DNA from: Nitrosopumilus sp.
GTDB lineage: Archaea > Thermoproteota > Nitrososphaeria > Nitrososphaerales > Nitrosopumilaceae
Direction: 5' to 3'
NCBI GenBank assembly: GCA_963667665.2
Contig: OY763927.2
Coordinates: 1,184,001 to 1,248,000, forward strand
Length of the DNA stretch: 64,000 bases
Shown: positions 2,651 through 20,879 of the stretch, one piece after another
Position numbering within the stretch: the stretch's first letter is position 1
Layout of the letters: each line of letters starts with the position of its first letter
The notes under the pieces: generated by a model
Databases searched by the model: none
What the model was told of the DNA's origin: nothing
Seen by the model: the letters and a program-made list of their open reading frames with translations, nothing else
Translations under genes and position numbers: made by a program

Positions 2651-3091
2651 CTATCTCCTTGGTTTCTCTTTCTTGCCAATTACTAATTCATGAAGTGATG
2701 TATCATTTACTTTGAAAACTTTGAATCTAACTCCAGGAATATCTCCCATTGCACCACCTTGTGTTGCACCCATACCTTGAATATGTACTTCATCATGCTC
2801 ATCAATGAAATTCATTGCACCGTCTCGTGGCAAAAATGCTGTAACGGTCTTTCCATTTTTAATTAATTGAACTCGAACACATTTTCTTATAGCAGAGTTG
2901 GGTTGTTTTGCTGCAATACCAACTTTTTCTAAAACAATACCTCGTCCTTGAGGAGCGCCTCCAAGAGGATCAGATTTTTTATCAATACCAAGTTTTCTTC
3001 TTTTGTAAGTAGAGATTGCCCATCTCTGTTTCTTTTTCTTAGAGTTCAAAACTCTACCAGCAAATAATCCGAGGGGTGATTTTCTTGTCAT
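2651..3091 (-). CDS. rps12: 30S ribosomal protein S12 (uS12)
   Basis: [31 protein letters not shown]. Confidence 0.98.
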
Positions 3092-3093
3092 TC

Positions 3094-3558
3094 TTACATC
3101 TCCAATGTTGATCTTTTTGGACTGTTAATTAGTACGTTTGTTATATTGAAATATCGTTTTGCAAGTAGACGTGCTTTTTCGGCATTTCTGCCTTCTCGTC
3201 CTACAACAATTCCTTTCTTTCTTGGGTCTACCAATACAATTGCCTGTTTTGAACCATCTGGTCTGGTATTTATTTTCACTTCAGAAACTAGTTTTGAGTT
3301 AAGTAAATTAGTCAAAAATTTTGCTGGATCTTCATCAAATTCTACCAGTTCAACATTTCTCTTGACAATATTTTGTAATGATTTGATATGCATGCCACCT
3401 TTACCAATTGCTAGACCCATTTTACCGGAATTAACTACAAAAATTACTCTATCTTGTTTTTCATCTTCTATACAATCACGTGCAGTTGCACCTGTTACAT
3501 TTTGGAAAAGAGACATCATACGCATTTGATCAGTAGAAAGTTTGATTGCTTGTGTCAT
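3094..3558 (-). CDS. nusA: archaeal NusA-like transcription factor (KH domains)
   Basis: MGLAIGKGG and [12 protein letters not shown] motifs; conserved position between L30e and S12. Confidence 0.93.
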
Positions 3559-12700: not shown

Positions 12701-13083
12701 CATGCATTTGATTTTGCCATAACTGGAACATCGCCGATATGAACAAATCTAGATTCCAAAATTTTTCCATCTTCTACAACACTTGCCTCCATCATTACAG
12801 GTGCAGAGTATGAAACATTTCTTAGTCTTGCTTCAGCAGGGGTGATATGAGTAATAGAACCGTCAAGTTCCATCATTCGTGGTTGTTGAAGTTTAACTTT
12901 ACCTAGTTGAATTTTGTAAGGATATTCAGCGTTTTCAATATCTATTTGGCTGACTTCATTGATAATGCTTTGAAGACCTCTTTCTAAAAATTCATCAAAG
13001 GAGTTGAGATGTTGACGTGCAATACCTTCACGTTTTAGAATATCTTGAATTACAGGCCAGCGTTTGTTAGAAGGATGAACCAT
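9736..13083 (-). CDS. rpoB: DNA-directed RNA polymerase subunit B (Rpo2)
   Basis: GDKFASRHGQKG, GGLRFGEMERD, C-terminal Zn ribbon. Confidence 0.98.
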   Translation of the reverse strand: MVHPSNKRWPVIQDILKREGIARQHLNSFDEFLERGLQSIINEVSQIDIENAEYPYKIQLGKVKLQQPRMMELDGSITHITPAEARLRNVSYSAPVMMEASVVEDGKILESRFVHIGDVPVMAKSNACILHNFSTQKLIEHGEDPNDPGGYFIINGSERVIVGLEDLSYNKIIVDRETVGGNIVFKAKVYSSIVGYRAKLELVMKNDGLIVARIPGSPVDIPVVILMRALGLESDREIAGVVSLVDDLQDELEGSFEKAADVATSKDAIVYISKRIAPGMLEEFQIKRAETLLDWGLLPHLGKHPENRKEKAQFLGEAACKLLELKLGWITSDDKDHYGNKVIKFAGQMLADLFRTAFRNLVRDMKYQLERSGQKRGINAVAAAIRPGIITDKLNNAIATGNWGRGRVGVTQLLDRTNYLSTISHLRRIQSPLSRTQPNFQARDLHATHFGRICPSETPEGSNCGLVKNLALSGIISVNVPSEEIVEKLYDLGTVHFFDAKEDLKKDGTRIFVDGRLIGYFKDGGELAELLRDLRRNSKIHPHVGISFHKSDIEGSTRRLYVNCNAGRVLRPLIIIKDNKSLLTQDLLDKISKKLLSWTDLLRMGVLEMIDANEEENCYVTLDDKDTKKRTHLEVFPPAILGAGASIIPYPEHNQSPRNTYESAMAKQSLGFSTPMMNTSTYVRQHFMLYPQVPIVNTKAMKLLGLEDRPAGQNCIVAVLPFDGYNIEDAIVLSQASVDRGLGRSFFFRIYDAEAKQYPGGMRDSFEIPNAEDNIRGYKGERAYRLLEEDGVVASESPIKGGDILIGKTSPPRFMEEYREFESTGPYRRDTSIGVRPSETGVVDTVVMTQSNEGGKMYKIRARDMRIPEIGDKFASRHGQKGVMGILAKAEDLPYTKEGMSPDVLINPHAFPSRMTVGMMMESICGKAAAFRGKRFDGSAFVGEKMDEVKEVMDAHNFKYSGKEIMYDGRTGKSFPVDVFIGVVYYQKLHHMVADKIHARARGQVQMLTKQPTEGRARGGGLRFGEMERDCLIAYGASMILKDRLLDESDKSDIFVCERCGLVAYHDVKQRKYVCRVCGDKAKVSSVSVAYAFKLLLQEMQSLNIAPRLLIKEKI

Positions 13084-13334
13084 TATACTTCCACCACATA
13101 TCGGTAATAGAGACTCGTACCAGCAGTTGGGCTTTTTCGGGTAATCTTTATCAAATCACCTGGTTTTACACCAAGTCCCAAAATTGCAGGATCAGTTACA
13201 AAAATTAATGGTAATTCAGTTGGGTTACAATTGTATTTTTCTAAAACTTGCTCAGCTTCTTGTTTTGAAATAATTTCATGTTTTGGAACATAGATATGAT
13301 CAGGAACTAGAACTTGATTTTTCTTAGTTGCCAT
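13083..13334 (-). CDS. rpoH: DNA-directed RNA polymerase subunit H (Rpo5)
   Basis: HIYVPKHEII...LPLIFVTDPA...GDLIKITRKSPTAG...YYRYVV. Confidence 0.97.
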   Translation of the reverse strand: MATKKNQVLVPDHIYVPKHEIISKQEAEQVLEKYNCNPTELPLIFVTDPAILGLGVKPGDLIKITRKSPTAGTSLYYRYVVEV

Positions 13335-13510
13335 CTATAAGACCTCCATTAGAACATTAAATGTAATAGTAAAGAATACACACAAACTGTAAAAAATTCC
13401 GTTCAGGTTAATATATATCTAATCTGAAATTCGTCGCAACAAGTGTTTTTTCTTATTTGTCAATAAATTTTTTCACAACCTTAAATAGTGTAAATTTAGG
13501 CGTAGAATTG

Positions 13511-14347
13511 ATGAAAGCTTATCTATCGGTGTTTGCCCTATCTGCAATTTTAATTGCAAGTATTGGTATGGCACCAGCATTTGGACAAAGCTCACTTGTA
13601 GTAACTACAGACAAAGCATCCTATTCAGAAGGTGATACTGTAGAAATTACAGGAGAAGTTGCTCAACTTCTAGGAGGATATGCCTTATCTGTCAGAGTGA
13701 TAGCACCAAATGGAAATATTGTTTCCATTGAACAGCTCACAGTTGGTGCAGATAAAAAATTCAGTTTTAGTACAACTGCAGGCGGCCCACTATGGAAGAG
13801 TGGAGGAACTTATACAGTTCTAGTCCAATATGGAGACAACAAAAATAATTCAGGAACAACATCATTTGAATTTGGTGGTTCTACAACGACACCACCAACT
13901 GAAGTAGAAGGATCAGTGTTAACTGATACAACTGTTTCAGTTTCAGGTTCTAGTGATTTGATAGGATATGAGATTACAGGTGGAAAACTACTAGGCATCG
14001 TAACTGATTTTGATGCAAATTCACTGATCATATCTATTCAAGCTGATGAGGATGGCACATTAATCCTTACAATACCTAGATCGGTGTTAGATGCAACAAT
14101 TAATGGTGAAGATGATGACTTCTTTATCTTAATTGATGGAGAAGAAGTAGACTTTGATGAAACAACCACATCAACAGACAGAACACTTACCATAGCATTT
14201 CCAGCAGGTGCTGAAGAGATCGAGATAATCGGTACCTTTGTGATTCCAGAATTTGGTACAATTGCAGTCATGATTCTAGCAGTAGCAATTATCTCAATAA
14301 TTGCAGTATCTGCAAAGTCAAGACTTAGTATTATGCCAAGATACTAA
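13511..14347 (+). CDS. PEFG-CTERM sorting-domain surface protein (copy 1)
   Basis: Signal peptide MKAYLSVFALSAIL; C-terminal VIPEFGTIAVMILAVAIISIIAVSAKSRL; start set at ATG 13511. Confidence 0.9.
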   Translation: MKAYLSVFALSAILIASIGMAPAFGQSSLVVTTDKASYSEGDTVEITGEVAQLLGGYALSVRVIAPNGNIVSIEQLTVGADKKFSFSTTAGGPLWKSGGTYTVLVQYGDNKNNSGTTSFEFGGSTTTPPTEVEGSVLTDTTVSVSGSSDLIGYEITGGKLLGIVTDFDANSLIISIQADEDGTLILTIPRSVLDATINGEDDDFFILIDGEEVDFDETTTSTDRTLTIAFPAGAEEIEIIGTFVIPEFGTIAVMILAVAIISIIAVSAKSRLSIMPRY

Positions 14348-14364
14348 AATTCATCTTTTTTTCT

Positions 14365-14372
14365 CTTTTTAA
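14365..14372 (+). repeat. left target-site duplication CTTTTTAA
   Basis: Identical 8-mer at 18200-18207; the paralogous empty spacer has a single copy at 19103-19110. Confidence 0.85.
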
Positions 14373-14430
14373 GATTCTGGGTAATCTGAGGGGTTTGTTT
14401 TGAATAATTCTCCGTGTTTACTTTCGGGTG
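14373..14430 (+). repeat. left terminal inverted repeat
   Basis: GATTCTGGGTAATCTGAGGGGTTTGTTTTG... matches the reverse complement of 18142-18199 at 44/58 ungapped positions (manual count). Confidence 0.88.
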
Positions 14431-14493
14431 TTTGTTAAGTATAGAATCTAAGTCTTGAAAAGATAAATTGAATATATCATATTCTCATAATAC

Positions 14494-14712
14494 ATGAGAT
14501 CGATTTATACTATAATTCAATATGTCTGTGTAGATGATTTCATCGATTATTCTTTTTGGGGGCTTGTCGTAGGACTTGTCACTCTTGCTGGCGGAACTGG
14601 TTTAGCATTATATTTGTATTTTAGAACAAAGAAAGATATTGATGCTATTGGCTTACATGATGATGTTATTGTAAGTAGACTAAGTTCGGCAGGCATAGAG
14701 ATTACGGATTGA
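14494..14712 (+). CDS. small single-TM hypothetical protein (transposon passenger)
   Basis: Hydrophobic stretch FWGLVVGLVTLAGGTGLALYLYF followed by RTKK; start uncertain. Confidence 0.5.
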   Translation: MRSIYTIIQYVCVDDFIDYSFWGLVVGLVTLAGGTGLALYLYFRTKKDIDAIGLHDDVIVSRLSSAGIEITD

Positions 14713-14753
14713 ACAAATAAATTCATAAATATAGGAATTTTTGAATATTATGT

Positions 14754-14897
14754 ATGTCTGAAACCACAATTAAGAAATCGACATTATCTAATCCAGATAA
14801 TGAAATAGAAGTTACAACAACTTTTCAAACAAAAACAACAATTGTTAATAATAATACTGAATATGACAAGGTAGATGACGACAAAGAAGAATATTGA
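14754..14897 (+). CDS. putative 47-aa acidic micro-ORF (transposon passenger)
   Basis: Manual translation MSETTIKKSTLSNPDNEIEVTTTFQTKTTIVNNNTEYDKVDDDKEEY; AT-rich TATA-like tract upstream; overlaps the start of the next gene. Confidence 0.35.
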   Translation: MSETTIKKSTLSNPDNEIEVTTTFQTKTTIVNNNTEYDKVDDDKEEY

Positions 14898-15312
14898 TTT
14901 TGAAGTTATAAAAGAAAGGTGGGGTAAATACACCTTAAATGATGGCTCAGTTTTAAAAATTAGATTTATTTTAACAAACATAAAAACATGGAATGAAAAC
15001 GGAGAGAAAAAATACACTGCAAATAATCAAGTCATTCAAACAATTCTTTCTGCTGAACATCTAATTGGAGAACCAGCAAAGGCTACATTTACACCCGAAG
15101 TATTACAAAAAAATATAGAAAAAGATGATTTATCATATGAGCAGTTAGAAACCCCAGTTAATGAATACATTTTAGATGATGGAACAAAACTCAAACTTTT
15201 CCCTCAAGTAATAAGAGTCGATAGATCTTCATTAAAAAATAAACTTGGTGAACCTATCTATATGGTAACTACCAATGTAACAATTAATTATAATTTACCT
15301 AAAACATCATAG
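14875..15312 (+). CDS. hypothetical protein with internal duplication (transposon passenger)
   Basis: Two related halves: ERWGKYTLNDGSVLKI and TPVNEYILDDGTKLKL. Confidence 0.75.
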   Translation: MTTKKNIDFEVIKERWGKYTLNDGSVLKIRFILTNIKTWNENGEKKYTANNQVIQTILSAEHLIGEPAKATFTPEVLQKNIEKDDLSYEQLETPVNEYILDDGTKLKLFPQVIRVDRSSLKNKLGEPIYMVTTNVTINYNLPKTS

Positions 15313-15336
15313 ATGAATCCTATGATCTATGTGATT

Positions 15337-16449
15337 TTATTTTTTACTGGAATTTTGAATTAAGGTTATCCATTTGTTTTTTCCATTAATTTTAATTCCT
15401 GCCCTATCTGCTGGAGTATCATTATTCAATCCCATGTGGGAACGGATGTAATTATGATGAATCTGCATACCTGTAATAATTGGAGAGTCATCTTTTTTCA
15501 ATCCTCTCATGACCTTTTCCCTGTCTCTAAGTTCTCCGTTAAGTCTCTCCATTTTGTTGTTGTTCATATCTCCCTTAAAGTGAACATGACGAATGTGGAT
15601 TGATTGATCTATTTTGTATCTTGAATACCATTCCTTTTTGTGGGCTTGCTGAAAGTTTCTAGCACCGTCTGAAATGAGTACTTTGGGTTTCTTTCCTGCA
15701 ACTTTTACACTTTCCTTAAACATTGGTCTTACATCCTCAGTGTACTTTGTATTTGAAACCTGTTTTGCAATCCAGAATCTAGTTTCATCATCCATCATTA
15801 CATAGAGATATTTTCTATCCCCTTTAATTTTGAGATATAGTTCGTCAGTTCTCCACTTGTCTGAAACTTGTGGTGTAATTTTTTCAAGATATTTCTCCAT
15901 AAGATTTGTATATTTTCTAATCCAATTCCATACTGTTTTGTGAGTTACTTTGACTCCTTGCAACTCTAAGAATCTCTGAGTATTCCTTAATGACTCTCCT
16001 GTAAAGTATAGTTGTAATGCAGATGTTATCATTTGAGGACTTGCTTTCATTTTCTCAAAGCCCAGATTGATTGAGAATTTCTTCTCACAGTTCTTGCATT
16101 TGAATCTCTGAATATCATAGTTTTTGTTGTGTCTAACTCCATCTTTTTTGAGATTAACAGATTCACAATTAGGGCAGGATTGATTATTAATTTCATTTAT
16201 GGTAACTTGTTGTTTTACTATCTCTCTAATTTCAAGTGAAACCTCTACTGCATGGATGTGTTTGCAACAAATTTGTCTGAATGTGTGATCAGGACAGGAA
16301 CATTCCCATCCTTGTTCAGTTGAGATAACGTCATAGTATTTGTTTTGTGATTGTGATTTTACTAGGTAGTAATGACTATCAATTCTCTTGATCTGGTCTT
16401 GTTTTTCTGCAATCTTTTTTCCTCTTTGTTGTCTTGGGTTTGGTTTCAT
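15337..16449 (-). CDS. IS6-family-like DDE transposase with N-terminal SWIM finger and Zn ribbon
   Basis: SWIM CSCPDH...CKH; CPNC...FKCKNC; HTH GESLRNTQRFL...VTHKTVWNWI; catalytic WRTDE, LISDG and NNKMER; start set at ATG 16449. Confidence 0.9.
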   Translation of the reverse strand: MKPNPRQQRGKKIAEKQDQIKRIDSHYYLVKSQSQNKYYDVISTEQGWECSCPDHTFRQICCKHIHAVEVSLEIREIVKQQVTINEINNQSCPNCESVNLKKDGVRHNKNYDIQRFKCKNCEKKFSINLGFEKMKASPQMITSALQLYFTGESLRNTQRFLELQGVKVTHKTVWNWIRKYTNLMEKYLEKITPQVSDKWRTDELYLKIKGDRKYLYVMMDDETRFWIAKQVSNTKYTEDVRPMFKESVKVAGKKPKVLISDGARNFQQAHKKEWYSRYKIDQSIHIRHVHFKGDMNNNKMERLNGELRDREKVMRGLKKDDSPIITGMQIHHNYIRSHMGLNNDTPADRAGIKINGKNKWITLIQNSSKK

Positions 16450-16459
16450 GTTGTTATAG

Positions 16460-16473
16460 TTATGGTACCATAA
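16460..16473. promoter_or_regulatory. perfect 14-bp palindrome TTATGGTACCATAA in the divergent transposase/AbrB promoter
   Basis: Self-complementary and abuts a TATA-like TTTAAAA in a ~55-bp divergent spacer. Confidence 0.55.
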
Positions 16474-16504
16474 TTTAAAATACATGAACTATCCTAAACA
16501 AATT

Positions 16505-16912
16505 ATGAAACTACAAAAAGTTCATGCGTACAACTATGGGGATAAAGCCCACCACAAGTATGTGATAACCTTGCCTGAGGAATTGATTGGTGAATTAAAG
16601 TGGGAACATGGTAGTGAATTAGAAGTTAAAAAACTTAAAGATAAAATTCAAATTTCATTTGTTTCAAAACCCGTCAAAAATCCGAAACCTAAGAACATAA
16701 AACCAAAGATGCCATATAGTGAATTTAGAGAAAAAATCCAAAATGCTTTGGAGTATAGAGATGATGGGGCTACATGGACTGAATTACGAGATCAATTAGA
16801 ATTAGAGCAAGTCGTACCTAATAACAAATGGGTTAGACAATTAGAGAAAGACATCGGACTAAAACGAATTAGAGACATGAAAGGAGTTGTGTGGCGAATT
16901 AGTCATGTCTAA
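16505..16912 (+). CDS. AbrB/MazE-like DNA-binding protein with a C-terminal winged-helix-like domain
   Basis: KYVITLPEELIGELKWEHGSELEV is an AbrB-type signature; C-terminal GATWTELRDQL...WVRQLE is helix-turn-helix-like; start is 16484 or 16505. Confidence 0.65.
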   Translation: MKLQKVHAYNYGDKAHHKYVITLPEELIGELKWEHGSELEVKKLKDKIQISFVSKPVKNPKPKNIKPKMPYSEFREKIQNALEYRDDGATWTELRDQLELEQVVPNNKWVRQLEKDIGLKRIRDMKGVVWRISHV

Positions 16913-17683
16913 GGGATTAAAGGCGTTTGATGATGTTAAAGTAGAAACAACAGTTGAGAAAAAATATTTTGAAGATCTTATTGTTTTAGGTAATGCTGTA
17001 CCTGATGAAATTAGTGACAATAGAAAAACTGTTTGCACAGTAGCGTTTTCAAAAGAACATGGACTGATTAGAATTTATCCAGTACCGCCATACTCTCCAA
17101 TGAAAAGGTGGAATGTAGTTTCTTTGCCCTTAGAAAGAAATACAAAAGATAGTAGAGATGAAAGTTGGAAAATTCAAGGCTCAAAAACAGAATGGGAGAC
17201 ATTATCAGATAAAATAATAGTAAAGCGAAAATTATCAAGAAAAGAGTGGGTAGAACTAATTACATATTTGAAAGAAAATCATAGTTATGGTTGTATCGAA
17301 GATATTAATGATAAAAAATTGAGTTTAGGAATAATTGTCCCAAAAATTATTGATAAGAATTTAGAAAAAATGTGGATTCTACTGTTCAAACCACATTAGT
17401 GAATGATGACTTATTCATGACAATTCAAAATTATGGAGTTCGTCCAGTTATTACATATAGTTGTCCCCATTGTAGAACTAAAAAACAACAACACAAACAG
17501 GGCGTGTTGGAATGGGGAGTGTATGAGTGGTTACGTTATAATCCTGTTGAAAAAGTTCAAGATCAAGTTTGGGATAATCTACACATTGATGAATCAGGGT
17601 ATGACCAAACGTTTCTTGTTGGCAATATGAATCTCCATAGGAGTAGATTTTTGATTATTAGTATTTTCAGGTACAAACTTTGA
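16905..17683 (+). pseudogene. frameshifted conserved hypothetical gene (DUF488-associated); joins ORFs 16887-17399 and 17372-17683
   Basis: Adding one A to the A6 run at 17365-17370 gives LEKNVDSTVQ and one continuous protein (TVCTV...LIRIYPVP...DSRDES...SLGII...EWGVYEW...FLVGNM...FLIISIFRY). Confidence 0.65.
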
Positions 17684-18040
17684 TTGTAACAATCTAGGAT
17701 CTTCAACCAACTCTCTAACCATGTGTCTGTGACAAGGGCAGCCATCTTTTTCATAACAAAGTAATGTAATGTCTTGCATGTTGCTTCTAGCTTGTAATGC
17801 ATGAATTGCTTCAACACTATCCATATTGTCTCTTAACTCAGACAATAGGGTTATTTTAAAATCATCCCAATCTACTTCAGTATTTTTGTATCGTTTTAGT
17901 AATTCTGCACTTGAGGCTAACTCTCGTACCCAAATATCATATTTTTCTCGTTTAACTCCCCTAGGATACCATCTAGTAATCAAAACTCGAAGTCCATCTT
18001 CTTCTTCGATTGGTTTGTAAATGGACTTTGTCTTAATCAC
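17594..18040 (-). CDS. DUF488/YeaO-family protein
   Basis: KSIY...DGLRVLITRWYPRGVKRE...WVRELASSAEL and ITLLCYEK...CHRH motifs. Confidence 0.85.
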   Translation of the reverse strand: MIKTKSIYKPIEEEDGLRVLITRWYPRGVKREKYDIWVRELASSAELLKRYKNTEVDWDDFKITLLSELRDNMDSVEAIHALQARSNMQDITLLCYEKDGCPCHRHMVRELVEDPRLLQSKFVPENTNNQKSTPMEIHIANKKRLVIP

Positions 18041-18049
18041 GGCTGTTCG

Positions 18050-18108
18050 CCTTTATCCTTGCACAAAATATAATTCATGATCCGATGTTGAAAAGCAAGG
18101 ATCAAAGG
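18050..18108. promoter_or_regulatory. inverted repeat bracketing the DUF488 promoter
   Basis: CCTTTATCCTTGC (18050-18062) pairs with GCAAGGATCAAAGG (18095-18108) with one bulge; the spacer holds a TATA-like tract. Confidence 0.5.
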
Positions 18109-18141
18109 AGAGAGATCGAGAAAAGTTGACTTTTTACTTAG

Positions 18142-18199
18142 CCCCCGATAGTAAACAAGTAGAAGATTTGAAAATAAACCCTTCAGATTACCCACTTCC
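18142..18199 (-). repeat. right terminal inverted repeat
   Basis: Reverse complement reads GGAAGTGGGTAATCTGAAGGGTTTATTTTC..., matching the left TIR. Confidence 0.88.
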
Positions 18200-18207
18200 C
18201 TTTTTAA
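18200..18207 (+). repeat. right target-site duplication CTTTTTAA
   Basis: Identical to 14365-14372. Confidence 0.85.
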
Positions 18208-18245
18208 ATATACATAAATACCAAAGATATCTGGATTGAAACAGG

Positions 18246-19085
18246 ATGAATTTTAAACGTTCTACAACATCAATGGCAATAGCCCTTATGGCACTGTCAT
18301 TAATTTCAGTGGTATCAATTCAACAAGATGCTTTTGCTGCAAGTCAAGGAATGTCTATTACAGCAACAGCTGATAGAGGTTCAGATACCATTACTCTAAT
18401 GGGTATGACAACTTCAGGATATACAGATGTTACAATTAGAGTAGTATCACCAATGGGAAATGTAGTATCTGTAGGTCAGGAAACACCAGATGAAAATGGA
18501 AATTTTGAAGATGTATTCAATGTTAGTAAATGGAATGAAGATGGATACTATACAATTCAAGCCAAGCAAGGTCAAGGAATTTTCACATTATCTGTAGATG
18601 TTCTAGTTAACAATGGTATGACTGAAAAAACTTCTGAAACTCAATCTACTTTAGATACAGGAATTTTTGTTCCAAACGTCATTACTAGAGACGCAGGAAT
18701 TGAAATTTTTGCAGAAGCTGAAATTGGTTCTACAACAATCAATATTATTGGAACTACAGACAGAGTAAGTGAAGCTATTACATTAACTGTAATTTCACCA
18801 AATGGGAATATAGTATCAATTGATCAAGTAACAGCAATGCTTAATGGAGAATTCACTTCAGTTATTGCTACAGGAGGACCATTATGGAAACAAGATGGTT
18901 TTTACACTGTAACTGCATACCAAAATGACAATCCAAAATATTCTGCGTCAACTGAGGTAGATATCAAAGATGGAGTAGTAGTACCAGAATTTGGTACAAT
19001 TGCAGCTATGATTCTAGCAGTAGCAATTATCTCAATAATTGCAGTATCTGCAAAGTCAAGACTTAGCATCATACCAAGATACTAA
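18246..19085 (+). CDS. PEFG-CTERM sorting-domain surface protein (copy 2)
   Basis: Signal peptide, two Ig-like repeats, C-terminal VVPEFGTIAAMILAVAIISIIAVSAKSRL. Confidence 0.9.
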   Translation: MNFKRSTTSMAIALMALSLISVVSIQQDAFAASQGMSITATADRGSDTITLMGMTTSGYTDVTIRVVSPMGNVVSVGQETPDENGNFEDVFNVSKWNEDGYYTIQAKQGQGIFTLSVDVLVNNGMTEKTSETQSTLDTGIFVPNVITRDAGIEIFAEAEIGSTTINIIGTTDRVSEAITLTVISPNGNIVSIDQVTAMLNGEFTSVIATGGPLWKQDGFYTVTAYQNDNPKYSASTEVDIKDGVVVPEFGTIAAMILAVAIISIIAVSAKSRLSIIPRY

Positions 19086-19147
19086 AATTCATCTTTTTTT
19101 CTCTTTTTAAATATACATAAATAGAGATAGGTGTAAATCGCAACAAG

Positions 19148-20005
19148 ATGAACAACCGTACGTCGTTCGCGCTACTAGCCGTTTTGACTGTAGTCGCTAC
19201 TTTAACCATGTCATCAGCATATGCTCAACAACCAGCAGTATATTCTGAGGAGGAAGCAAGAATAGCAGCAAATGAGTTTTTGCTTCAGGATCTTCCAGTA
19301 TCTGTTTGGACAGACAAAACAGATTATGTTCACAATGACATGATTATTGTAACAGGTCAAGTAGCAAATGTATCTGGATTTCCAATCACAGTTACTGTTG
19401 TGAGTCCACTAAACTCCCTTGTTACAATTGCTCAACTCACTGTAGCAAATGATGGTAGTTTTGAGACAACACTAAACACAGCAGGTGCAATGTGGAAATA
19501 CGATGGTACCTACACCATTAAAGTAAACTATGGAAGCCCTGAAAAAAGTAACAAAGCAAAAGTTGAACTAACTGGTGAAGTTGCATATACACCAACAGTG
19601 CCAGCAAAACAATGTGGTACTAATGATATATCTGTAGATGGTCAATGTATACCATACAGCATTTCAGGTGGAATGGTAACTAGTGCAACCTTCAATACTG
19701 ATGATAATTCAATTATCATTAACATCAACGCAGAAGATGATGGAACACTAACAATAAACCCAGAAACACAAGTCATAGATGGTATCTTTATGGTACTAGT
19801 TGACGGAGAAGAATGGGATGATGTTGAAATTGTTGCAAATAAAGTAACAGTAATGTTCCCAGCAGGCGCTGAACAAATTGAAATTATTGGTACCTTTGTG
19901 ATTCCAGAATTTGGTACAATTGCAGCCATGATTCTAGCAGTAGCAATTATCTCAATAATTGCAGTATCTGCAAAGTCAAGACTTAGCATCATACCAAGAT
20001 ACTAA
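19148..20005 (+). CDS. PEFG-CTERM sorting-domain surface protein (copy 3)
   Basis: Signal peptide; C-terminal VIPEFGTIAAMILAVAIISIIAVSAKSRL. Confidence 0.9.
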   Translation: MNNRTSFALLAVLTVVATLTMSSAYAQQPAVYSEEEARIAANEFLLQDLPVSVWTDKTDYVHNDMIIVTGQVANVSGFPITVTVVSPLNSLVTIAQLTVANDGSFETTLNTAGAMWKYDGTYTIKVNYGSPEKSNKAKVELTGEVAYTPTVPAKQCGTNDISVDGQCIPYSISGGMVTSATFNTDDNSIIININAEDDGTLTINPETQVIDGIFMVLVDGEEWDDVEIVANKVTVMFPAGAEQIEIIGTFVIPEFGTIAAMILAVAIISIIAVSAKSRLSIIPRY

Positions 20006-20075
20006 AATCACAACTTTTTTTCATTTTTTCATTTTAGATAGTAAAGGAAATATACAAATGTGCATTTGGAAACTT

Positions 20076-20879
20076 GTGGAATCTAAAATATTTTATGGTA
20101 TCATAGTTTTATTTTTTATTTCAACTACAACTGCGTTTGCTCAAGAATCTTTAATTTCCGATTTTAAGACAGATGACAATCTGTACGATGAAGGCGATAC
20201 AGTTGTAATATCAGGTATTGTAAATACAGTAATTGGAAAAACGCCAATCATAATACAAATAATTCATGAAGCAACATACGTACATTTTGCACAAATAGAA
20301 GTAGCCCAAGATGGTACATTTTCAGAAACGGTTATTGCAGAAGGGCCATTATGGAAAAATGCAGGAGAATACATAGTTAGAGCATCATACCAAGATCAAA
20401 TAGCAGAAATTGAATTTGATTATACTCCAAAATCAGAGTCAATTGAGACCACAACCAATTTTGAAGTAGATGCAGGAAGTTATGGAACATTTGATGTAGA
20501 GTATACCATCAGAGGAGGTACAATTAAAGACATGATAGTAGATACGGAACAGTTTGCAATAATAGTACAAATTGATTCAACAGACGAGGGAACCATCACA
20601 TTAGATTTACCTAGAGAATTCATAGGTGCTGAGAAACAAAATGGTAAAGATGATACTTTCATTATTCTGATAGATGGAATAGAAGTTGCATATCAAGAAT
20701 CTTTAGTACACCCAAATTCCAGAGTCATAACAGTGAATTTTGAAGAAGGGGATTCAGATATTGAAATTATTGGAACTTATGTTGTTCCAGAATTTGGCAC
20801 CATTGTAATGATGATTCTGATTGTAGGTATAATGACAGTTATTTTAGCATCCAGAAACAAATTACAAATTAAGATTTAG
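20076..20879 (+). CDS. PEFG-CTERM sorting-domain surface protein (copy 4, divergent tail)
   Basis: Signal peptide from GTG 20076; C-terminal VVPEFGTIVMMILIVGIMTVILASRNK. Confidence 0.88.
   Translation: MESKIFYGIIVLFFISTTTAFAQESLISDFKTDDNLYDEGDTVVISGIVNTVIGKTPIIIQIIHEATYVHFAQIEVAQDGTFSETVIAEGPLWKNAGEYIVRASYQDQIAEIEFDYTPKSESIETTTNFEVDAGSYGTFDVEYTIRGGTIKDMIVDTEQFAIIVQIDSTDEGTITLDLPREFIGAEKQNGKDDTFIILIDGIEVAYQESLVHPNSRVITVNFEEGDSDIEIIGTYVVPEFGTIVMMILIVGIMTVILASRNKLQIKI

Follow-up and report, generated by a model that had tools for sequence, protein, structure and literature searches.

A 3,827-bp segment of the Nitrosopumilus sp. genome, positions 14373-18199 of a 64,000-nt stretch of contig OY763927.2 (assembly GCA_963667665.2), is very probably a unit transposon (tIS) of the IS6 type in the broad ISfinder sense, with long ends, a cargo of passenger genes and a target at the edge of a promoter. 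The whole 64,000-nt stretch is hereafter called the window; the contig is designated G000:C1, and contig coordinates exceed those of the window by 1,184,000. IS6 elements are minimal insertion sequences (ISs), which are thought to move cargo only between two copies. In the present case, an IS6 core equipped with two zinc modules and long two-part ends appears to drive true unit transposons in archaea, ammonia oxidisers among them. Cargo units of this kind, bounded by terminal inverted repeats (TIRs) and a target-site duplication (TSD), surround homologous transposases in many archaea. The initial annotation, made from the letters of the window, had described a unit of this length with inverted repeats in exact register and the same 8-bp repeat on both sides, and our analysis reproduced its coordinates and counts. 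The following features define the unit and its target:

14365..14372, no strand: left copy of the TSD, CTTTTTAA, read directly; present once in the empty sites of the relatives G018, G020, G022 and G006.
14373..14430, plus strand: left TIR, with outer block TGGGTAATCTGAGGGGTTT and inner block GTGTTTACTTTCGGG, the two blocks conserved among ten aligned ends.
18142..18199, minus strand: right TIR, read directly; its type fits the end beside the left flank in the relative G016 (47/58, against 43 for the left end).
18200..18207, no strand: right copy of the TSD, CTTTTTAA, read directly.
18208..18220, plus strand: ATATACATAAATA, read directly, containing a TATA-like box of the next PEFG-CTERM gene 6 bp past the duplication; its promoter role is suggested by the geometry.
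19103..19110, no strand: unoccupied paralogous target, CTTTTTAA, located after PEFG copy 2 by a repeat search; the equivalent site is filled at the related locus L050.

The left 58 nt and the reverse complement of the right 58 nt are identical at 44 positions without gaps and in register, and a repeat finder returned a 51-nt core within them (14378-14428 and 18144-18194; 82%). A purely fortuitous origin of the inverted repeats and the 8-bp repeat might be considered in AT-rich DNA, since the 1.89-Mb genome has a G+C content of only 34.4% and CTTTTTAA is of low complexity, but it is refuted by three observations. First, 200,000 random inverted 58-mer pairs drawn from the window gave a mean of 16.2 identities (standard deviation 3.6) and a maximum of 32. 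Second, exact empty sites exist in four congeners. Third, the end occurs a third time in the genome (see below). The tips read GATTCTGGG on the left and GGAAGTGGG on the right; the IS6 tip signature (GG, cTGTt, caaa) fits them in part, and it fits the family well. The unit does not stand out in composition (28-36% G+C, against about 34% in the flanks), and a search of positions 13000-20000 against Rfam returned no family at the gathering score.

The state of the site before insertion can be read both within the window and in related genomes. Positions 14246-14372 are 96% identical over 127 nt to 18984-19110, a match that reaches the end of the next PEFG-CTERM paralogue, and positions 18196-18220 are 96% identical to 19099-19123, continuing the spacer of that paralogue. 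Removal of the unit together with one repeat therefore restores the paralogous spacer TTCTCTTTTTAAATATACATAAATA, and the earlier suggestion that the empty site is visible in the window holds. In addition, a search of window positions 12800-19800 against 40 relatives, which extended the comparison to genomes without the insert, found the flanks joined and the 8 bp present once (...TCT(C/A)TTTTTAAATATACATAAATA...) in the same-genus genomes G018, G020, G022 and G006. The unit is thus an insertion relative to its congeners.

As had been noticed from the letters, one DDE transposase lies in the middle of the unit, flanked by 964 bp on the left and 1714 bp on the right (anticipated as about 1 kb and 1.7 kb). 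It is divergently oriented to a gene for a small DNA-binding protein:

15337..16485, minus strand: transposase of 382 aa, with a SWIM-like zinc finger (C62, C64, C74, H76), a 4-Cys zinc ribbon (C104, C107, C130, C133) and an IS6-type helix-turn-helix (HTH)-DDE core (D214, D273, E313), as indicated by Pfam, NCBIfam and a 13-member alignment.
16484..16912, plus strand: AbrB/MazE-like DNA-binding protein of 142 aa, divergent from the transposase (Pfam MazE_antitoxin, E 2.3e-4, residues 25-66).
16445..16488, no strand: palindrome across the transposase and AbrB-like starts, a putative operator; its 24-nt arms (16445-16468 and 16465-16488) are 79% complementary and span 44 nt in all.

The assignment of the enzyme to IS6 in the broad sense rests on the NCBIfam model transpos_IS6 (NF033587), which matches residues 143-346 over positions 1-200 of its 202 (E 3.8e-34, 118.2 bits), whereas the second-best NCBIfam family, IS1, scores 50 bits. 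Pfam models agree with this placement (PF13610 DDE_Tnp_IS240, 55.5 bits against a cut-off of 27, E 8.9e-15; rve, E 2.3e-11). Database labels of the relatives read "IS6 family transposase" or "DDE-type integrase/transposase/recombinase," and homologues form 5207 protein clusters at E<=1e-20; a sequence search of the PDB gave no match at E<=0.01. The view that the enzyme is an extended form of IS6-like transposase was confirmed by a 142-aa N-terminal extension, which comprises a CxCx9CxH motif and the 4-Cys ribbon; the true start may be M13. Residues 60-81 match SWIM weakly (Pfam, E 0.0021) and residues 104-138 match the IS1/IS1595 zinc-binding domain (NCBIfam, E 1.2e-6). All eight zinc-ligand positions (C62, C64, C74, H76, C104, C107, C130 and C133) and the catalytic D214, D273 and E313 are invariant in the 13 of 13 family members aligned (55-85% identity).

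The wider family was examined in two sets. For set 1, 194 relatives were found in species-representative genomes and 75 loci were kept, belonging to Nitrosopumilaceae, Nitrosotalea, Nitrososphaera, Bathyarchaeia and Methanoperedens (53-84% identity), with 74 scored for ends; set 2 came from an independent scan of metagenome contigs, with at least 506 relatives and 78 loci kept. Ends were detected by a scripted inverted-repeat search spanning the transposase gene, with the flank reversed but not complemented as a control, and a bounded unit was defined by inverted repeats around the transposase plus a perfect 8-bp duplication. In set 1, inverted repeats scoring at least 20 were present in 39 of 74 loci, compared with 1 of 73 in the control. 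Bounded units of 2,060-5,923 bp were recovered at 27 of these 74 loci, with ends of 17-62 nt that mostly start with GGTTCTGT, and 18 of the 78 metagenome loci yielded bounded units of 2,583-7,296 bp. The expectation that relatives would show TIR/TSD pairs around variable cargo was thus borne out in both sets. DNA lies on both sides of the transposase gene in all 27 + 18 bounded units, and flanking cargo is therefore the norm of the family. Furthermore, a small open reading frame (ORF; 45-116 aa) diverges from the transposase in 25 of the 27 bounded units of set 1, starting 33-113 nt upstream of the transposase start, except in L099, where it starts 59 nt inside the gene as called. By Pfam, six of these ORFs are of the AbrB/MazE type, seven are ribbon-helix-helix proteins (mostly weak matches) and one is a zinc ribbon; the rest have no match or a marginal one. 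The regulator slot is conserved while its fold varies. The AbrB-like protein of the present unit is a probable regulator. A single family uniting all small upstream ORFs with the AbrB-like gene was considered and rejected, as an iterative profile retrieved only four.

The long ends had been thought to contain several binding sites. This idea is supported at the level of the family: the outer 22 nt have a direct-repeat partner further in (gapped local score of at least 9) in 32 of 62 ends, compared with 22 of 1240 stretches of interior DNA and 1 of 62 controls in which the same inner region was reverse-complemented, and an alignment of ten related ends contains two conserved blocks separated by a variable spacer. 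A previous, ungapped form of the sub-site test gave a weak signal (17 of 62 at 10 or more of 16, against 4.2% of controls) and was replaced by the gapped test. The idea did not hold as clearly for this copy itself, in which the inner partner of the outer 22 nt is weak (score 5) and the support comes from the two blocks of the ten-end alignment.

The unit contains five or six ORFs, which were compared with the Pfam, NCBIfam, PHROGs and PADLOC profile libraries. Its passengers are as follows:

14494..14712, plus strand: 72-aa ORF with a hydrophobic stretch, taken from the ORF list and of uncertain gene status; no match in Pfam, NCBIfam, PHROGs or PADLOC.
14875..15312, plus strand: 145-aa orphan, which recurs near one end of related units; no match in Pfam, NCBIfam, PHROGs or PADLOC.
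16887..17683, plus strand: PDC-M19B-like "gene X," split into ORFs of 170 and 103 aa (PADLOC PDLC04508, E 1.3e-11; PHROG 25907, E 3.9e-20).
17594..18040, minus strand: DUF488 protein of 148 aa, PDC-M19A/PDC-M45C-like (Pfam DUF488-N3a, E 4e-28; PADLOC PDLC04658 [PDC-M45C], E 6.3e-9, and PDLC04505 [PDC-M19A], E 1.2e-6).

In BLASTP clustering, the 145-aa orphan is shared by this unit, G013, L037, L050 and L084 (5 of 31 units), and its matches in the Atlas are unnamed archaeal clusters only (score 0.95). Gene X is interrupted by a 7-nt deletion near 17363; a copy elsewhere in the genome (G000:C1:598278-599088) reads through with seven extra bases, AGAAAAA. The PDC-M19-like A and B genes are adjacent and convergent, with B split, and PDC-M19 is listed in PADLOC as a candidate system only; DUF488 and gene X may thus be regarded, on the strength of these profile matches, as a candidate two-gene defence module.

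Apart from the transposase, few ORFs are common to the units. A Pfam scan of 97 cargo ORFs of at least 70 aa identified HicA/HicB, type I methylase and specificity subunits, GmrSD-HNH, NOV_C, PIN, ParB_N, DprA/SLOG with a phosphoribosyltransferase, KwaB, N6/N4 methylase, a cyclase and proteasome-like subunits, and most of the 97 had no Pfam match. The cyclase, carried by L033, matches PADLOC PycC. Thus, judged by domain content, the cargo of the family is often of the defence type. The proposal that the unit carries defence or stress genes gains from the PDC-M19 A and B matches here and from the restriction-modification, GmrSD, HicAB, KwaB and PycC-like genes of its relatives. Likewise, a unit transposon with a single transposase agrees with the perfect 8-bp duplication and with the finding of neither a second transposase copy nor relic ends beside the gene.

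Traces of movement are present in the same genome. A search of the whole genome with the TIR core, as had been recommended, gave three occurrences: both ends of the unit and a solo end at G000:C1:598226-598281, which is identical to the left end of the unit at 53 of 58 positions. The solo end directly adjoins an 811-bp copy (G000:C1:598278-599088; solo end and copy together correspond to L014 10226-11088) of unit positions 2677-3480, cut inside DUF488. This arrangement implies that a related element landed in a second, now fragmentary, copy of the cargo. The copy differs from the unit by six substitutions and one 7-nt indel in 804 nt. Since the cargo copies are nearly identical while orthologous flanks are only about 80% identical between species, the comparison indicates recent movement within the genome. 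No partner was found for the solo end, and no end motif was found at the homology break near window position 17049. About 10 kb around the solo end contain an IS6-like transposase fragment along with further ORF fragments, a split transposase-like pair among them.

Seventeen matches to the transposase were found in this genome. Four are long paralogues (40-48% identity), which are distant from the unit, and three of these sit in TIR-bounded units of 2.6, 3.0 and 3.3 kb:

G000:C1:403718-406290: paralogue unit with a 40/42 TIR and the duplication GTCAAAAA.
G000:C1:474894-477934: paralogue unit with a 24/24 TIR, without duplication.
G000:C1:874871-878165: paralogue unit with a 44/58 TIR.

Two pairs of equal-scoring partial transposase matches, one inverted and about 50 kb apart (1817515-1817844 and 1867672-1868001) and one direct and about 6.7 kb apart (899212-899640 and 905870-906298), all on G000:C1, suggest two duplicated regions.

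The end inside the second DUF488 copy demonstrates that relatives insert into each other, which raises the question of whether the window itself holds a patchwork, in which the outer ends belong to one element, the transposase or cargo derives from nested relatives, and the 3.8 kb does not move as one. The nested IS5/IS630 elements associated with the insertions of G013 and G008 at the same site (see below) are in keeping with such an origin. However, an end-tip motif scan of positions 14300-18300 detected no internal end pair and no relic ends beside the transposase gene; the four internal tip matches (14593, 15779, 16164 and 17086) all lie in coding sequence and, by reading, do not pair as inverted repeats. 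Moreover, two-sided cargo is found in every bounded relative of both sets. A patchwork is therefore quite improbable, and the unit is best treated as a single transposon.

The insertion site lies in a tandem array of four paralogous secreted proteins (13457-14347, 18246-19085, 19148-20005 and 19959-20879). The first three members end in ...PEFGTIA...PRY, a C-terminal membrane anchor, and the fourth shares this anchor but has a different tail; weak MG2-domain matches occur in 13457-14347 and 18246-19085, the two array members scanned. Two spacers of the array share a 20-nt terminator-promoter motif. Within the window, the duplication ends at 18207, the box ATAAATA occupies 18214-18220 and the next PEFG ATG stands at 18246. 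This genome has two copies of the 20-nt target motif, which lies on the right-hand side of the insertion point; one of them is occupied. In other species, the following insertions were found at the PEFG site:

G016: 2,443 bp with a decayed transposase and other cargo, inverted with respect to the unit; duplication ATTTTTAA.
G013: 3,458 bp with another end type (GGTTCTGTCAAGTTAGCG...); duplication CTTTTTAA.
G008: 13.7 kb with many nested IS5/IS630 fragments and related ends; diverged repeat CTTTTTAG / CTCTTTAA.
L033: 3,799 bp with a transposase of 84% identity and ends matching at 62/62; duplication CTTTTTAA.
L034: 3,965 bp, with TTAAAAAG and a second end alongside.

The ends of the G016 insertion pair best with the opposite ends of the present unit (47 against 43 and 44 against 39 of 58), and its transposase match is on the other strand; the G016 unit is therefore inverted relative to that at 14373-18199. 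The G008 insertion (L029 2812-16497) contains several IS5-type and IS630-type transposase fragments and two long ORFs of 675 and 658 aa, one of which encodes a right-handed beta-helix domain; no IS6-type transposase profile match was found among the ORFs scanned. At a related site in another genus (L037), CTTTTTAA occurs three times, bordering a 3,260-bp unit and a 632-bp derivative that lacks the transposase. At L050, the paralogous site after PEFG copy 2 is occupied.

Short inserts of about 36-41 bp are also found at the PEFG site. Those of G004 (L024; 40 bp) and G003 (L019; 39 bp) are both flanked by ATTTTTAA, that of G010 (L016; about 40 bp) lies between imperfect repeats, and that of G011 (L018) is similar with a degenerate repeat; G019 (L017) has a 204-bp insert flanked by CTTTTTAA. 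One side of the short inserts in G004, G003 and G010 resembles a TIR tip (scores of 11, 10 and 9, against a null 99th percentile of 9), and the inserts of all five genomes may be the scars of lost elements. A scan of species genomes with the 20-nt motif gave at least 143 sites. Among the matches listed (143), 92 are empty, 3 contain short scars, 27 have no PEFG stop within 120 nt, 4 are too short and 17, in another context, were excluded. Sixteen of those 27 (16 of 122 usable sites, again among the matches listed) end in a diverse TIR tip exactly one base before TTTTTAA. The promoter-edge site of PEFG genes is a hot spot for different members of the family across species.

The same site invites another reading, in which a single ancient insertion was inherited vertically, diverged in place and is now immobile. 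Such a relic would account for ends that agree at only 44 of 58 positions and for the frameshift in gene X, for the many congeners that carry something at the site, including TSD-flanked remnants, and for the likeness of the right sides of the short inserts to TIR tips; the G016 transposase, with 76% DNA identity, is also about as diverged as the flanks (77-79%). By contrast, the transposase reading frame is unbroken and retains every residue that is invariant in the family, the difference between the left and right ends is kept in G016 and in the solo end and thus looks functional rather than decayed, and the second cargo copy is far closer to the unit than orthologous flanks are to each other. 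In a tree built from the 1.57-kb left flank of the PEFG site, each of the two main clades (support 99/98) contains occupied species, which branch beside others whose site is cleanly empty; in addition, G013 and G008 have a different TIR type and L050 uses the paralogous site. An old relic is consequently unlikely.

Target choice is non-random throughout the family. When the set 1 sites are read with the transposase from left to right, positions -13 to -7 of the left flank are 78-100% A/T and are followed by G-rich positions. A TATA-like box confined to the transposase-upstream (left) flank, a hypothesis set beforehand, failed in set 2 (7 of 17 on the left, against 10 of 16 on the right). With either flank admitted, an A/T-rich, TATA-like heptamer lies 6 bp from the duplication at 23 of 24 sites in set 1 (20% of random positions in the same loci) and at 15 of 18 in set 2 (13.6%), the position range and threshold of the test having been fixed beforehand and its either-flank form after the flanks had been seen, which makes it partly post hoc. 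The resulting motif, TSD-CAWWGT-TTATAT, resembles the BRE/TATA region of archaeal promoters, the BRE being the element bound by transcription factor B (TFB). Outward-pointing ORFs of 60 aa or more begin at a distance of 20-70 nt from the duplication on 19 of 35 TATA-like flanks and 7 of 22 other flanks, a gene geometry that is suggestive only as support for promoter-edge targets. Insertion at a second recurrent landing site is seen at L053, L075 and L079, from different genera, where the conserved right flank reads ...CTTTA(A/T)TAGGTACTnGTACCGTACnATACGGTAAG and precedes an ATG or TTG start codon; on the left, all three units also adjoin the end of another element.

Family members are frequently stacked. 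Ten of the 27 bounded units of set 1 adjoin another end at exactly the 8-bp duplication, as do about 3 of the 18 of set 2 by reading of the flanks. Complete neighbouring units that share the same 8 bp were verified in two cases, L062 (3,812 bp, with CGAAATTA three times) and L037, and no partner end was found for 8 of the 10 abutting neighbours in the loci examined. It is therefore conceivable, if somewhat doubtful, that the recurrence at PEFG genes reflects homing to resident ends, or to the 40-bp scar of an older element later lost, rather than to promoter sequence. The stacked units, the t[A]t[B]t arrangement in L062 and L037 and the TIR-tip-like scars at the PEFG site itself are what such homing would produce. 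On the other hand, this unit and L033 have neither scar nor neighbour on either side, 32 of 45 bounded units (17 of 27 and 15 of 18, by reading) adjoin no end, and most of these still have a TATA-like box at the fixed spacing. Arrays by themselves fit end homing as well as a target that is defined by one flank, from which they are equally expected.

As a tentative proposal, the elements may home to the upstream edge of core promoters, and the 8-bp staggered cut would then fall on or next to the BRE, 6 bp away from the TATA-like box. They might recognise either DNA bent by the TATA-binding protein (TBP) and TFB or a promoter-like sequence read by the zinc modules, and conserved strong promoters of the PEFG type would serve as reusable landing pads where, in one species after another, defence-carrying elements succeed each other and stack. 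If this is true, it would represent a promoter-targeted DNA transposon system in archaea and a route to small defence islands.

A working model for the unit transposon can be outlined as follows. The transposase would bind two directly repeated sub-sites in each long end, pair the ends and attack the target with an 8-bp stagger, at a fixed distance from a TATA-like box or directly against the end of a resident relative. By analogy with what is proposed for IS6 members, a replicative cointegrate would form and then be resolved by host recombination, so that everything between the ends is carried along. The promoter downstream should survive, because the duplication restores the sequence beside the box. 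The AbrB-like protein probably represses itself and the transposase at the palindrome between them.

Several points weigh against the interpretation as an active IS6-type unit transposon with promoter-edge targets. On the side of target choice, these are the failure of the left-flank hypothesis in set 2, the partly post hoc form of the heptamer test, the indecisive gene geometry and the neighbours lacking partner ends. Regarding this copy, its ends differ at 14 of 58 positions while several relatives have perfect ends, its internal direct repeat is weak, one cargo gene (gene X) is broken, and no second full copy of the unit or its transposase was found in the genome, which bears on the mobility of the exact unit. 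Simple insertions with duplications are compatible with resolved cointegrates and are no proof of them. In the wider family, 47 of 74 loci in set 1 and 60 of 78 in set 2 have no detectable TIR/TSD pair; short contigs account for part of these cases and decay may account for another part. As for the name, the NF033587 score of 118.2 is below the curated equivalog cut-off of 125, and Harmer and Hall (2019), in the part of their text that deals with family limits, argue for removing archaeal and long forms from the IS6/IS26 family and state that there are no experimental data on them (PMC6807381).

What distinguishes the present window is the combination of a clean empty site, both internal and orthologous, with recent movement in the genome and a conserved promoter-edge hot spot used by many family members. 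Units of this kind are common in archaea and ferry restriction, toxin-antitoxin and candidate anti-virus genes, and their recurrent promoter-edge site offers a natural experiment on target choice. The same site might also be exploited to direct insertions in archaea of poor genetic tractability.

Some aspects of the unit have parallels in other mobile elements. IS30 targets its own inverted repeats and IS26 inserts next to a resident IS26, and the present family similarly lands beside resident ends. However, in the conservative reaction of IS26 no duplication is made and one IS copy is common to both, whereas in the t[A]t[B]t arrays the newcomer keeps both of its ends and re-duplicates the 8-bp flank of the resident. 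The eukaryotic retroelements Ty3 and Tf1 insert into promoter-proximal "safe havens," guided by transcription factors. Like the archaeal units, they integrate a short, constant distance ahead of a core promoter and leave the gene intact; here the element is an archaeal DDE DNA transposon, and a role of TBP/TFB is only conjectured. Members of the Tn3 family have inverted repeats of about 38 bp, a 5-bp duplication, a large Tn3 transposase and a resolvase. The unit differs from them in its 8-bp duplication and IS6-type transposase, and no resolvase or serine/tyrosine recombinase domain was detected in any unit ORF by Pfam and NCBIfam scans.

In the literature, no description of long-ended IS6-type archaeal cargo units was found, consistent with the impression that the family is poorly described. 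Thaumarchaeal IS-like transposons are described as having one or two genes, and passenger-gene transposons as undetected in archaea, in the main text of Krupovic et al. (2019; PMC6563490); the present family would fill this gap. "IS6" as a whole word is absent from that main text, and the IS families per genome are given in its figures and supplementary tables, which may bear on this point. According to the portions of the IS6 review that treat family features, inverted repeats are 15-20 bp with GG tips, the elements are about 0.8 kb, transposases have 220-250 aa except in zinc-finger Clostridial forms, and cargo is mobilized in pseudo-compound transposons by way of cointegrates (Varani et al., 2021; PMC7986276). 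These figures agree with the contrast drawn in the initial annotation between classical members and a unit with 58-nt ends and a single transposase. The same portions name one passenger-carrying IS6 member, ISDsp3 of Dehalococcoides sp. BAV1 (PMC7986276).

The unit and IS6 elements such as IS26, IS257/IS431, IS240 and IS6100 share an HTH-DDE transposase that is matched over the whole profile, an 8-bp duplication and, in the relatives, tips (GGTTCTGT) that fit GG/cTGTt. The IS6 elements, as portrayed in that review, have one gene and move cargo only between two directly repeated IS copies (PMC7986276), whereas the unit has two-block ends of about 58 nt, a 382-aa transposase with two zinc modules, five or six ORFs and a strong target preference. 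In the broad ISfinder sense, it therefore shares the core profile and the 8-bp duplication with IS6 and departs from it in IR length, in the size range of 0.7-0.9 kb and in carrying more than a transposase. The strict IS6/IS26 family of Harmer and Hall, with a short bacterial-type transposase and a conserved 14-bp TIR, does not include it, its enzyme being archaeal and 382 aa long. It is also distinct from an IS26-type pseudo-compound transposon, as only one transposase gene is present in or beside it; passengers and one transposase within one end pair and one duplication are the hallmarks of a unit transposon or tIS. Long Clostridial IS6 forms (clades h/i of Varani et al.; VII/VIII of Harmer and Hall, PMC6807381) resemble it, by description, in an N-terminal zinc-finger extension; they are described as bacterial plain ISs of 1.2-1.8 kb, whereas the unit is archaeal, has the SWIM pattern CxCx9CxH and carries cargo. 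A parallel in organization, as far as published descriptions of it allow a comparison, is ISDsp3, in which a single IS6-type transposase and passenger DNA also lie in one end pair. ISDsp3 is a single-copy element of 1,456 bp with one hypothetical passenger gene, whereas the archaeal family comprises hundreds of members of 2.1-7.3 kb with several passengers on both sides. The IS6 core is thus known, and the architecture, for which we found no earlier description, is that of an IS6-core enzyme in a unit transposon with a regulator slot, defence-type cargo and non-random targets.

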